DNA of 64,000 nucleotides from Streptosporangiaceae bacterium (GTDB taxonomy: Bacteria; Actinomycetota; Actinomycetes; Streptosporangiales; Streptosporangiaceae): contig DATAWQ010000079.1 of the NCBI GenBank assembly GCA_036267135.1, forward strand, positions 9,342 through 73,341. The letters are read 5' to 3'. Every line of letters begins with the position of its first letter. The first letter of the stretch is position 1. Positions 8,410-14,413 of the stretch are shown here, piece by piece. The translations under genes and the position numbers were made by a program. The notes under the pieces were generated by a model. It was not told the origin of the DNA, did no database searches, and saw only the letters and a program-made list of their open reading frames with translations.

Positions 8410-10761
8410 TCAGGGGGGTGGAGGTAATGAGGCAGCGGCGGCCGGAACCGTTAGGACCGCGGGGGCGGGACCGCGGACGGCCGGCTGGGCGGGGCGGTAG
8501 CGGGCGACCAGGCCCGGCTCGGTGTAGCGGGGGGTGGCGGCGTGCCAGTTGACGATGCCCGCCATCCAGTTCTGCAGCTCGGTGGCGCGCCGGAACACGG
8601 CTTCGCTGGCGTGCAGGCCGAGCTGGTGTTCCTCGCACAGCGCGGGCAGCCCGACGGCAACGATGTGCTCGAACTGGCGCATCCGCTCGGTCATCAGGTT
8701 GTTCACGATCCCGACCGCCTGGTCGCGGTTGCAGCCGAAGAAGTTCTGCACGGCCAGGACGGTGTTGTGCAGCTCGCCCTCGAACTCGGTCTCCTTCTGG
8801 TAGGAGAAGATGTCGTTGAGCAAGCAGGCGTAGTCGCTGGCGGTGTCTTCCATCACCTGGATCGTCTTGGCCGCACGGACCTCGGGTGGCAGCGAACGGC
8901 CGGGGGCGAGCTGGGCGAGGGCCATGGTGAGCTTCGAACCGAAGGTCTGGCGGCGCATCTCGACGCAGTCCACCGGGTCGGGGATCCGGTGCAGGATCTC
9001 GCCCGCCACCTCCCAGAGCCAGCTATCGGTCATCTCGGCGACGGCCCGCTGGAACCGCTGCCTTTGCGCAGGGGTCATCGGCCCGGCGGTGCGGGCCCAC
9101 AGGTCGGCCAGCCCGCGCTCGATCGGGTTGGCCGGGGCCGCCTGCGGCCCGGTGGCCGCAGCTGTGGGCATGAACGCGAGCAGCCGCTGGTTCTGGGCCT
9201 TGGCGGCGGCCATGTTCCTGGCCCGGCCGAACATTGCCGGGTAGTAGTCGTCGGCGTAGGTTCCCCAGATCAGCCAGTCGGCCGAGAGGTCAAGTTCCGA
9301 TTCGCCGCAGTCCGGGTCGAGGCCGGCCGCGCACAGGGCGAAGTCGAAGGACCGCAGCTCGTCCTCCCGCCACAGCACCCCGCGGGGAGCACCTGGCACG
9401 GGATCGAGGAACCCGATCCGCGTGGACCAGGTCATGACGTGCTCGCGCGCGGTGTCCAGGTTCGGATTCAGCCGCAGCGGGAAGGGCATCCGGAATTCGG
9501 GTAGTGGGGTCGGGCCGACCGGCTGGAACGCCGGGGCGGCGAAGCTGGCGATGCGCCGCAGGGAACTGGCGGCCGGGAAGCGCGCGGCTGCCGTGCCAAG
9601 CCCGGCAGGGGCGCCGGCCGGCCCGGCGGCCTGCCCGCCGCTGTTCATGTACCGGCTGGACCGCAGGTGCCACTCGTGGCCACCGGCCTGCCAGTCCTGC
9701 AGCCCCTTGACGTAGGCCGTCACGGCCGCCTGCTCCGGCGGGGGCACGGCGTGCTCGGCGAACAGCGGGGGCAACTCGGTGATCGCGGTGTGCTCGAACT
9801 GCTGCAGCCGGGAGGTCAGCAGGTCGTTCACGGCGTCGGCGGCCTGCTGCGGGCCCAGGCCGAGGAACCGCTCGAACACCAGCACGCCGTTGTTGACCTC
9901 ACCCTCCTGCTCGGTCTCGCGCTGGTAGGAAAAGATGTCGTTCCGCAGGTGGACCGCGTCGGCGAACGTGTCGCACAGCACCCGCAGCGGGCGGGTCGCG
10001 GCGATCGGGGCGGGCACCTCCGCGCCGCAGGCGTGCTCGACCAGGTTGGCCGACCAGGGCGCGCCGCCGACCTTGCGCCGCATCTCGATGTACTCGATCG
10101 GGTTGGCCACCCGTCCCTGGCTGATGTTGGTGAGCTCCCACAGCGACTCGTTGAGCAGGTTCCTCGTGGTGGTCGCGAACCTGTCCCGCCAGGCCGGCGA
10201 CATCGCCGGGACGGTGCGCGGCCATAGGTCGGCCAGGCCACGCTCCACCGGGTTCTCCGGCTCCGGCGGTTCGCCCCCGCGGGCCGGCATGAACGCCGCC
10301 AGCCGGTCCAGATATGCCTTGGCCGCGGTGGTGTTCCTGGTCCGCTTGAACAGTTCGAGGAAGTGGTCGTCGAAGTAGAACACCCAGACGTACCAGTCGG
10401 TGATCAGGTTCAGTTCCTGGCCGTCGCAGTCGGGGTGGGTGTAGGCGCACAGCAGCCCGTAGTCGTGCCGGTCCAGGTCGCCCTGGTCCCAGATGTGGTG
10501 GCCGCCGGCGGGTTCGAGGAAGCCCATCTCGCGGGCCCACCGCGAACTGTGCTCGCGCGCGCCGGCCAGGTGCGGGTTCAGCCGCGCGGGGTAAGGCAGG
10601 TAAAAGGCGGGCAGCTCGAAGGGCTGATCCTGGCGGGGAGGTCCGCCGGCCGCCCCGCCGGAGGACCCGGCGGGGCGCGACGGAATGGGTGTGGGGGCGG
10701 GTGGGCCGGCGGGCTTCGCGCGTGGAGGCAGGCCGGGCGGCCCCGGCAGCGTGGTGGCCAT
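8410..10761 (-). CDS. geoA: Germacradienol/geosmin synthase (two-domain class I terpene cyclase) with a Pro-rich N-terminal extension
   Basis: 783 aa. N-domain [22 protein letters not shown] (10354-10371), [10 protein letters not shown]-domain [25 protein letters not shown]. The layout is colinear with characterised Streptomyces geosmin synthases. Confidence 0.95.
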
Positions 10762-10767
10762 GGCCGG

Positions 10768-12251: not shown

Positions 12252-13508
12252 TCACTGGTAACGGCTGGTGGTGCGGTGCCATTCGAACCCCCCACCCATC
12301 CAGGCCTGCGCTCCGCGCAGAAACCGCTGGAGCTCAACGGACGGCAGGGCCGCGAGCTGGCGCTGGCTGGCCTCGAACCCCCGGACGAAGTCGTTGTGCA
12401 GGGCCACGGTGCGCTCGGTCGCCTCCCGGATCGTGCAGTTCTCTTCCAGGGCGATCAGCAGCACCAGGTTGGAATCCGGCAGTTCGTCCGCGGCCTCCCT
12501 GGCCACCGAGTAGAGGTCGTTGACGAGCACCGAAGCCGTGCCGGCCTGCATCAGCGCCCGGTGGAAACGCCGTTCGGCGAACAGGTTCGCGGGCAGCTCG
12601 TAGCCGCCGACGACGTCGATGAGGGTCATAGAGGTGTAGAAGCTGTCGTGCTGGCGGGCGGCGAGGTAACGCCACACCGGCGGCGGCTGGCCGAGGAACC
12701 GCCAGGCCGCGTAGGCGGTCCAGCTCACGTACATCTGGCTGGTGGTGTTGCAGGCCCGCATGACCTGCGCGGGGGTGGCGTGCCTGGACAGGTGGGCGGT
12801 GGCCGAGCTGAGCGCGACGAGCACGGGATCGGACCGCACCGCGTCCTCGAGTTGGCGGGTGTAGTCGCCGGCCGGCGGTGGCGGGTCCATCGCGGACGTC
12901 ACCAGGGCCAGCCGGGGAGGAAGCTCGGTGGGGGTGGCCCCGAGCGGCGTCTCGTCGGCGTAGTAGTCGTCCGCGGCCCACCAGGCAGCGTTCATCTGGG
13001 CCGCGATCAGCAGCCTGTCGGGGTCGTCGGTGTCGGCATGGGTGAGCATGGCCAGCCGGCCGAAGCCGGTGTCGCGGAACTTGTCTATCCGGCCGGCGTG
13101 GATCCCGACCTTCTCCGCCCAGGCCACCAGCCGGCGGTTGACCTCCTCGCCCAGGTCCTCGTCGATGCGAACGGTCTGCGGACAGTACAACGGTGGGTAT
13201 GAGCCGTCGCCCCATTCCCGCTCCAGATACGGCAGCGGGGCGTAGATGTCCCTGGGCACGAAGTCGGGCTGGTACAGCGTGGCGGCCAGGTCGAACCCGG
13301 GCGGTTCCGGCGCCTCGGGAGCAGGCGGCTCCTCGGCGGCCGGGGGCGCCTCGGGAGCAGGTGGAGCCTGGGTAGCCGGCGGAGCCGCCAGGGTCGCGGT
13401 GGCCTGGGGCGCCCGCGTGGCCGCGGGGAAGCGGCACGCGGAGGTCCCCAGGCCGGACGGCCCGGCCAGTACCCCGGCGAGGTCCAGGCCGTAGCGGTCG
13501 TACCTCAT
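12252..13508 (-). CDS. 2-methylisoborneol synthase-type (C11) terpene cyclase with a disordered N-terminal region
   Basis: 418 aa. Metal-binding DDYYADE (12951-12971) and NDLYSVAREAADE, C-terminal WHRTTSRY. The first ~95 residues are Pro/Ala-rich. Its ATG overlaps the methyltransferase stop (ATGA at 13505-13508). Confidence 0.88.
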   Translation of the reverse strand: MRYDRYGLDLAGVLAGPSGLGTSACRFPAATRAPQATATLAAPPATQAPPAPEAPPAAEEPPAPEAPEPPGFDLAATLYQPDFVPRDIYAPLPYLEREWGDGSYPPLYCPQTVRIDEDLGEEVNRRLVAWAEKVGIHAGRIDKFRDTGFGRLAMLTHADTDDPDRLLIAAQMNAAWWAADDYYADETPLGATPTELPPRLALVTSAMDPPPPAGDYTRQLEDAVRSDPVLVALSSATAHLSRHATPAQVMRACNTTSQMYVSWTAYAAWRFLGQPPPVWRYLAARQHDSFYTSMTLIDVVGGYELPANLFAERRFHRALMQAGTASVLVNDLYSVAREAADELPDSNLVLLIALEENCTIREATERTVALHNDFVRGFEASQRQLAALPSVELQRFLRGAQAWMGGGFEWHRTTSRYQ

Positions 13509-14413
13509 GACCGGCCGACGTAGTCCGCGGCGATGAGCAGGTAGTGGAAGCTGCCTTCACGGTAGGCGGTCAGGAACGGGCCCTCGATGCCGGTGGCGAC
13601 CGACGATTTCGCCCGCAGTTCCCAGTACGGGATCGTGTGCGCGGTCAGGTCGACGACGTTGATCGGGACGAAGTCGTTGGCCACCAGTGCCTTGAAGTAC
13701 TCGCTGCGCGGATGGATGTCGCAGGTGTAGTGCTGGTCGATCTGGCTGACCGCCTTGGACCGGCCGCCGGTCACGTCGTTGTAGCACCCGGTGATGCAGA
13801 CGTACCGGCCGCCGTAAGGCAGCAGCCGGGCGAATTCGCCGAACAGATCCTGCAGATCGACGTACATCGTGGTTTCGTTGGTCCAGATGCCTTGCCGTGA
13901 GCCGGTTTCGAATCCGGTGTCGAGCATGTTGCGGAAGTGGAACCGCACCTGATCGGCCACGCCACGCTCGCGGGCCTGCGCGTTGGCGAATTCCACCTGG
14001 GCTTCGGAGATCGTCACGCCGTCGACCTGGCAGGCGAATCGCTGATTCGCCATGAAGCTCGTGCCGCCACGGCCCGAACCGCCGTCGAGCAGCCGGTGAT
14101 GCGGCTCGATATCGTCGAGGTGATCAAGCAGCAGGTCGGCCTGTGCGGTCTCCAGCCGGTGCATCTCGGCGATGATGGCTTCTTCGCGGGTTTCGGACGG
14201 TTCCTCGAGCACGGCCGGGTCATAGTCGCCGATGCCGTAGTGGTGGTGATAAAGCCCGTCGACTTCACCGAGCTTGATATTGACCGGATCCTTCTCCTTG
14301 TTCCAGTACGCGGCCACGGAACGCTGATAATCGCTGCGCAGCACCGGCTGGTCCGCGGTGGCAGTTGTGACAGTGCTGGCAATGTCGCGGACGGCATGAT
14401 GAGTCATATTCAT
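13505..14413 (-). CDS. Geranyl diphosphate 2-C-methyltransferase (SAM-dependent)
   Basis: 302 aa from ATG 14413, with GGAG about 10 nt upstream. SAM motif LLDGGSGRGGTS. Strong resemblance to the GPP methyltransferases paired with 2-MIB synthases (YWNKEKDPVNIKLGEVDGLYHHHYGIGD, IWTNETTMYVDL). Confidence 0.92.
   Translation of the reverse strand: MNMTHHAVRDIASTVTTATADQPVLRSDYQRSVAAYWNKEKDPVNIKLGEVDGLYHHHYGIGDYDPAVLEEPSETREEAIIAEMHRLETAQADLLLDHLDDIEPHHRLLDGGSGRGGTSFMANQRFACQVDGVTISEAQVEFANAQARERGVADQVRFHFRNMLDTGFETGSRQGIWTNETTMYVDLQDLFGEFARLLPYGGRYVCITGCYNDVTGGRSKAVSQIDQHYTCDIHPRSEYFKALVANDFVPINVVDLTAHTIPYWELRAKSSVATGIEGPFLTAYREGSFHYLLIAADYVGRS

Follow-up and report, generated by a model that had tools for sequence, protein, structure and literature searches.

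A 64,000-nucleotide stretch of Streptosporangiaceae DNA (contig DATAWQ010000079.1, positions 9,342-73,341; hereafter the window) carries a compact cluster in which a single gene for a family 2B encapsulin shell lies between the genes of two earthy-odorant pathways. Read along the minus strand, the cluster encodes a geranyl diphosphate (GPP) 2-C-methyltransferase (MT), a terpene cyclase of the 2-methylisoborneol (2-MIB) synthase type (MIBS), the shell protein, the geosmin synthase GeoA and a bestrophin-like membrane protein. With some reserve, we favour the reading that this five-gene operon yields shells in which MIBS and GeoA are mixed, or else two populations of shells that draw competitively on a single shell pool. 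Related loci that we compared with the window are designated by L-numbers. The five genes, in operon order, are as follows.

13505-14413, minus strand: MT, 302 residues; NF041943 equivalog, 528 bits (cut-off 400).
12252-13508, minus strand: MIBS, a 2-methylisoborneol-synthase-type class I terpene cyclase of 418 residues; NF041167 (family 2 encapsulin cargo terpene cyclase), 467 bits (cut-off 400), and PF19086.
10768-12171, minus strand: family 2B encapsulin shell protein, 467 residues; NF041163, 727 bits (cut-off 400), and PF19307 (SrpI-like), 458 bits.
8410-10761, minus strand: GeoA, a two-domain germacradienol/geosmin synthase of 783 residues; PF19086 in two stretches (Terpene_syn_C_2).
7643-8398, minus strand: bestrophin-like membrane protein, 251 residues; PF14023, 126 bits.

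The MIBS start codon overlaps the MT stop codon by 4 nucleotides (ATGA, 13505-13508), 80 nucleotides (12172-12251) separate the MIBS and shell genes, 6 nucleotides (10762-10767) separate the shell gene from geoA, and the bestrophin-like gene starts 11 nucleotides past the geoA stop. Ribosome-binding sites are found 8 nucleotides 5' of the shell ATG (GGAGG) and 5' of the bestrophin-like gene (AAGGAG). No terminator-like site was found among the five genes. A conserved internal promoter or RNA element was sought in the gap between the MIBS and shell genes, but this gap is unconserved and measures just 28 nucleotides in L005, so that nothing favours a separate internal promoter. Neither a riboswitch nor a leader turned up in an Rfam scan. 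The five genes are thus presumably co-transcribed. An earlier note on this DNA, made from the sequence alone, had described the four minus-strand open reading frames (ORFs) from MT to GeoA. Their coordinates, overlap and gaps match the sequence, every peptide motif that it quoted is present in the translations, profile searches agree with its gene identities, and shell-cyclase-methyltransferase, the order that it called usual, is indeed the one usual in Streptomyces. Its operon of four genes is confirmed as far as it went, but the fifth, co-directional bestrophin-like gene had been overlooked.

Profile-HMM searches of 10768-12171, a check that the earlier note had proposed, returned an SrpI-like shell together with a cNMP_binding domain. 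The protein aligns over residues 2-464 with the solved family 2B shells 9bix (610 bits), 9bhu (593 bits) and 9bje (563 bits), and from this full-length alignment to three structures its predicted HK97 fold is not in doubt. With about 60% identity to shells solved by cryo-electron microscopy, it most likely self-assembles as a T=1 60-mer. The inserted domain is located as follows.

11575-11835, minus strand: cyclic-nucleotide-binding-fold insertion domain (CBD) of the shell protein, residues 113-199; PF00027, 43.8 bits (cut-off 27.5), aligned with the CBD of 9bhu and 9bix.

This insertion is the defining feature of subfamily 2B. In the alignment to 9bhu, the residues of the three-fold pocket, L261, L282, F427 and Y438, are identical to L264, L285, F430 and Y441 of the Streptomyces griseus shell (Sg Enc), where these four hydrophobic residues sit beneath the cargo density.

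The sole match of the Rfam scan lies across the shell gene and belongs to an antisense family. RF02735 (Sernc350, a Saccharopolyspora antisense small RNA) matches over its full length at window positions 11639-12143 on the plus strand, with 80.8 bits (gathering score 50). It lies opposite the 5' third of the shell gene, in antisense, and spans the N-arm and the CBD. It could correspond to a true antisense regulator, or the model could mirror conservation of the coding strand.

The window MIBS is identical to a protein assigned by NCBI to a Streptosporangiaceae metagenome-assembled genome. Moreover, three separately assembled soil-metagenome contigs of the Joint Genome Institute (JGI), Ga0376652_0000119, Ga0376646_0010910 and Ga0376690_0002580, hold the same five genes with 99.3-99.96% nucleotide identity to the window. 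Since these three independent assemblies agree, the layout is not a chimera. That the cluster is an assembly chimera or a decaying locus, as its metagenomic source and a JGI gene call shortening the shell gene to 290 residues might suggest, has in our view a negligible probability: beyond the agreement of the assemblies, the five ORFs are full length when compared with family models and solved structures, and diverged loci share the layout. The shortened call (L161 11869-12741) starts at an internal codon, and its product contains the SrpI-like domain without the CBD. An exact-sequence look-up of the 467-residue shell protein gave no match because of this shortening. The 290-residue product would be classed as family 2A. 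Censuses based on such gene calls could misclassify loci of this type, and the reported actinobacterial pairings of GeoA with family 2A shells may include mis-called 2B genes.

Loading of 2-MIBS and GeoA into family 2B shells proceeds through short GPxGLGT or GPTGLGTSAAR motifs, which lie in disordered Pro/Ala/Gly-rich regions and bind at the shell's interior three-fold axis (PMC11550324, PMC8346489, bioRxiv 10.64898/2026.07.21.739788). The motif promotes loading of S. griseus 2-MIBS (PMC11550324) and of Myxococcus xanthus GeoA, to whose loading the peptide CLP1 contributes (bioRxiv 10.64898/2026.07.21.739788). In the window, a GLGT motif is present in both cyclases, within regions containing 48-64% Pro/Ala/Gly. 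The segments concerned are listed here.

13209-13508, minus strand: disordered N-terminal cargo-loading domain of MIBS, residues 1-100, 48% Pro+Ala+Gly; identified by composition, in line with the 2-MIBS loading domains of PMC11550324.
13425-13463, minus strand: MIBS loading motif GPSGLGTSACRFP, residues 16-28; fits the published consensus.
10627-10761, minus strand: clade-specific Pro-rich N-terminal extension of GeoA, residues 1-45, starting MATTLPGPP and containing LPGPP; identified by conservation.
9577-9615, minus strand: CLP1 of GeoA, a loading peptide in the interdomain linker, residues 383-395; position and consensus as in M. xanthus GeoA CLP1, from alignments.
8413-8514, minus strand: C-terminal tail of GeoA, with CLP2 degenerated; from alignments, relatives reading PTGLGTxAAR there.

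No loading motif of the GLGT or PGPP type was found in MT, the shell protein or the bestrophin-like protein. MT, which scores 346 bits against PDB entry 4f84 and 343 bits against 3vc1, both of them GPP 2-C-methyltransferases, has no Pro/Ala/Gly-rich N-terminus either and is therefore expected to remain outside the shell.

MIBS carries the metal-binding motifs DDYYADE (Asp-rich) and NDLYSVARE (NSE), and NDLYSVAREAADE is also present in its translation. The protein is 42-47% identical to MIBS of Streptomyces and Actinoplanes and belongs to a divergent, non-Streptomyces branch; JGI labels its close relatives 2-methylisoborneol synthase, by annotation only. The GPSGLGTSACRFP motif is kept in the MIBS of L081, L171, L166, L165, L005 and L169. 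An 18-nucleotide (6-residue) tandem repeat lies inside the loading domain at 13308-13386.

GeoA shows the metal-binding motifs DDHFLE and NDIFSYQRE in one domain and DDYYP and NDIFSYQKE in the other. It matches the structure of the Streptomyces coelicolor GeoA N-domain (5dw7) with 539 bits, and NF041168 with 1146.7 bits, narrowly below the cut-off of 1200; in the latter alignment residues 46-772 cover positions 1-731 of the 735 in the model. The sequence LPGPP at the N-terminus of GeoA is an alternative loading-domain consensus of one group of 2-MIBS (PMC11550324). The extension that contains it is kept in L081, L171, L166 and L007/L085, as well as in the geoA remnants of L005 and L169/L170. 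Only synonymous differences separate the first 13 geoA codons of the window from those of L081, and the extension is, judging from its coding sequence, under purifying selection. Among the 120 nearest GeoA homologues, a [LMIV]PGPP extension occurs in nine, all within the 12 closest. A C-terminal GLGT is present in 1 of these 9 PGPP-bearing proteins versus 85 of the 111 others (Fisher p = 1.5e-4, uncorrected for relatedness), a p-value that overstates the independence of the nine, which form one clade.

These features suggest how the system would work. One transcript would give MT, MIBS, the shell protein, GeoA and the membrane protein. The shell would assemble like its solved relatives, and during assembly its three-fold pocket would capture the disordered loading peptides of both cyclases. 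MIBS would be bound via its N-terminal GPSGLGTSACRFP domain, and GeoA via the linker peptide CLP1 and probably also via the MATTLPGPP extension. Since both cyclases would be present at assembly with pocket-binding peptides, both are candidates for capture. MT, having no loading peptide, would work outside the shell; 2-methyl-GPP and farnesyl diphosphate would enter through pores, and 2-MIB and geosmin would be made under single transcriptional control. As far as sequence can tell, dual loading of one shell type is plausible. A narrower proposal is put forward tentatively, and we hold it to be less probable than its contrary: a single-component family 2B shell would co-package MIBS through GLGT and GeoA through a new N-terminal LPGPP-type extension replacing the C-terminal GLGT.

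In order to determine how widespread this arrangement is, as the earlier note had suggested, we compared related loci. Genes for GeoA and for the 2-MIB pair flank one shell gene again in L081 and L171, but the MT-MIBS-shell-GeoA layout is absent from the 80 closest shell loci of GTDB species representatives, which include shell-GeoA, shell-MIBS-MT, shell-MT-MIBS and two-shell types. The window layout turned up only in metagenome contigs and via the contexts of MIBS homologues. L081 has MT-MIBS-shell-GeoA with 83-85% nucleotide identity to the window; L171 has all five genes in the order of the window, with a shell protein of 86% amino-acid identity, and L172 is an incomplete copy of L171. The same five genes are found in L166 with MT-MIBS inverted, the two halves diverging from a shared intergenic region. 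L165 shows an independent single-shell order, shell-MT-Nudix-MIBS-GeoA, and the GeoA encoded there carries the two canonical peptides and lacks the N-terminal extension. Both cyclases also occur with two shell genes, in L129 (Enc-GeoA-Enc-MIBS-MT) and in L173, a 4.7-Mb Trebonia contig (GeoA-Enc1-MT-(Nudix)-MIBS-Enc2). Layouts with both cyclases are thus recurrent in uncultured soil Streptosporangiales lineages, and the cultured relatives Nonomuraea sp. M3C6 and Acrocarpospora catenulata have ordinary layouts.

Five further loci, L127, L132, L139, L142 and L148 (GeoA-shell-MT(-MIBS)), were considered as a second single-shell type and dropped because L173 has a second shell gene after MIBS; they are Trebonia contigs and probably have a second shell gene too. 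In L173 (9503-10614), the MIBS gene between the two shell genes is split into ORFs of 154 and 215 residues, which may reflect a pseudogene or an assembly frameshift. A Nudix hydrolase gene stands between MT and MIBS in L164, L165 and L175-L178 and is fused to MIBS in L175/L176 (560 residues). This insertion suggests a variant route, for example 2-methyl-GPP hydrolysis.

The history of the operon was approached through a neighbour-joining tree of the shell proteins. In it the window falls together with L081, L005, L002 and L087, in a group whose sister comprises the bestrophin-like/shell/GeoA loci L001, L007 and L085. A larger group of shell-GeoA pairs encloses both. Traces of geoA remain where the gene is missing, at the following places between the shell and bestrophin-like genes.

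L005, 11399-11530: geoA deletion scar.
L169, 10643-10867: geoA deletion scar.
L170, 6309-6524: geoA deletion scar.

L005 reads MT-MIBS-shell-bestrophin-like and retains, after the shell stop and a 6-nucleotide spacer, ATGGCGACGACAATGCCGGGC, which encodes MATTMPG. L169 and L170 contain a 74-codon fusion of the GeoA N-terminus and C-terminal tail, MATTMPGPP...PFILPDFYLPYPPRLNPHLEGA joined to HLHSGRYTEPE, and in L170 the remnant is fused in frame with the bestrophin-like ORF and called as a protein of 322 residues. The position of these remnants, exactly between the shell and bestrophin-like genes, shows that the five-gene order is ancestral to the clade.

The earlier note had read the cluster as a dual-cargo or competitively loaded nanocompartment. 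In favour of this stand the motifs on both cyclases, the pocket residues, the packing and the conserved layout. This layout is not unique: it comes back in several lineages of soil Streptosporangiales, and other gene orders likewise join both cyclases to shells. Several observations weigh against the dual-cargo reading. MT-MIBS and shell-GeoA are divergent in L166, so co-transcription is not obligatory. MIBS is remote from characterised 2-MIBS (140 bits to 3v1v of S. coelicolor), and its exact C11 product is presumed from sequence. GeoA lacks the C-terminal loading peptide, so its loading may be weak, and GLGT motifs are eroded across the clade to GRGT, GLGS, GLGV and GLDT. geoA was lost at least twice with MT-MIBS-shell intact, so the coupling is dispensable. 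Finally, one related metagenome-assembled genome carries two family 2B loci, L006 and L010.

Some of these observations would be expected if the shell loaded essentially one cyclase, MIBS or GeoA, and the other stayed free in the cytoplasm, an alternative that we regard as rather unlikely. Were MIBS the sole cargo, its intact canonical loading domain would account for this, as would the erosion of the GeoA motifs with loss of CLP2 and the repeated deletion of geoA from loci that retain MT-MIBS-shell. Were it GeoA, the choice would fall on the enzyme with which this shell lineage was ancestrally in tight coupling: the lineage lies within shell-GeoA pairs whose genes are about 6-40 nucleotides apart. 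In addition, about 20% of actinobacterial 2-MIB clusters are in genomes without a family 2B shell, so encapsulation is not essential for these enzymes. However, each cyclase keeps at least one motif of a kind known to mediate loading, and for M. xanthus GeoA either of its two peptides was enough by itself. The purifying selection on the GeoA N-terminal extension and the conserved pocket residues likewise speak against a free passenger.

It is also conceivable, though quite improbable, that the shell is single only locally and that further family 2B shell genes elsewhere in the genome form mixed or dedicated shells, in which case the single shell gene of the operon would not set the make-up of the compartment. 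Besides the genome with L006 and L010, a family 2B shell is encoded elsewhere in 88% of the genomes whose GeoA is unlinked (bioRxiv 10.64898/2026.07.21.739788), and the Trebonia dual clusters proved to be two-shelled. Against this, no second shell gene was found within the 64-kb window, nor was one seen on the fetched stretches of L171 (the whole 11.2 kb), L166 (15.2/15.6 kb) and L165 (17.2/45.7 kb).

All parts of the operon come from known families, and encapsulation of 2-MIBS and of GeoA has been validated experimentally, each separately and in other organisms. One of the closest characterised systems is that of S. griseus, with the genes for Enc (EshA), 2-MIBS and MT (Andreas & Giessen 2024, PMC11550324; 9bhu). 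As in the window, its 2B shell has a CBD (about 60% identity over the full length), the four pocket residues are the same, and its 2-MIBS has a disordered N-terminal Pro/Ala/Gly loading domain with GPxGLGT. Its GPP methyltransferase is non-encapsulated, and the same is expected of the window MT. In contrast, the S. griseus order is shell-MIBS-MT, without a geosmin synthase or bestrophin-like gene, whereas the window reads MT-MIBS-shell-GeoA-bestrophin-like. In M. xanthus, GeoA is loaded into a two-component 2B shell (Fazal et al., bioRxiv 10.64898/2026.07.21.739788). There too geoA adjoins a 2B shell gene, but two shell genes serve a single cargo, while the window has one shell gene and two candidate cargos; moreover, the window GeoA has no C-terminal peptide and bears the N-terminal MATTLPGPP extension, which the M. 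xanthus paper does not describe.

More than one protein with a disordered terminal domain was noted in 165 2B operons with a terpene cyclase and a polyprenyl transferase, where multiple cargos were suspected (Andreas & Giessen 2021, PMC8346489); co-loading has not been characterised in any of them. In those operons a cyclase is joined by the enzyme supplying its substrate, both in one pathway, whereas the two window cyclases belong to different pathways (C11 and C15-derived). The soil Streptosporangiales loci L173 (Trebonia) and L129 resemble the window in combining both odorant cyclases with 2B shells in one cluster. Having two shell genes instead of one, they could provide each cyclase with its own shell or form a two-component shell, and their GeoA keeps CLP2 without the linker CLP1, the reverse of the window GeoA. 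A combined MIB and GeoA operon with one shell gene is undescribed in the literature that we searched, including two surveys from the family-defining laboratory and the 2021 supplement. The 2026 preprint merely raises the possible loading of unlinked GeoAs into shells encoded elsewhere (bioRxiv 10.64898/2026.07.21.739788), and the multi-cargo speculation of the two-component-shell paper is confined to two-component shells. The earlier note, too, knew of no characterised system of this kind; each cargo type by itself has been characterised (PMC11550324; bioRxiv 10.64898/2026.07.21.739788).

The bestrophin-like gene stays beside the shell gene or geoA in L005, L001, L007, L085, L166, L169, L170, L171 and the Trebonia loci L175/L176. 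Its neighbours are family 2B shell or terpene cyclase genes in several gene orders, among them those of Trebonia operons that lack GeoA. Its product may be an unrecognised accessory of these systems.

Upstream of MT, a further conserved segment lies in a low-GC intergenic stretch.

14455-14489, minus strand: conserved element GGATATGTGT...GCAATTGCGGAAGCAT.

The window, L081, L171, L005 and L169 share this element, and L166 has part of it. Within it lies the palindrome CAATTG, and it matches no Rfam family. We consider it a candidate promoter or operator of the operon.

Near-perfect tandem repeats occur at 15049-15095 (15 nucleotides) and 15434-15493 (18 nucleotides). The former sits in the low-GC region upstream of the operon, and the latter translates into YQKFSA repeats in the C-terminus of a PstS-like secreted protein (15377-16696, minus strand). 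An ORF of 81 residues (15113-15358, plus strand) is divergent from the operon and shows about 62% amino-acid identity in L081 (tblastx); it has no family match, and none was seen upstream of L171. SARP/BTAD and NB-ARC-TPR regulators lie on either side of the cluster, at 2060-5173 (minus strand), about 5290-6135 (plus strand) and 16842-19592 (plus strand). Such flanks are typical of actinobacterial secondary-metabolite clusters, and these genes are possible pathway regulators.

Encapsulation has so far been shown one enzyme at a time, for 2-MIBS in 2024 and for GeoA in the 2026 preprint. As a compact test case provided by nature, the operon and its relatives could show whether two cargos are sorted or mixed by one shell type, how the number and type of peptides set loading ratios, and whether one transcript can co-regulate the two compounds that chiefly give soil and drinking water an earthy off-flavour. 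If a single-component shell does natively co-package MIBS and GeoA through two different peptide classes, one nanocompartment would make both geosmin and 2-MIB, and peptide valency would set their ratio. Such a shell would be the first multi-enzyme family 2 encapsulin from nature and would exemplify naturally tunable cargo competition.

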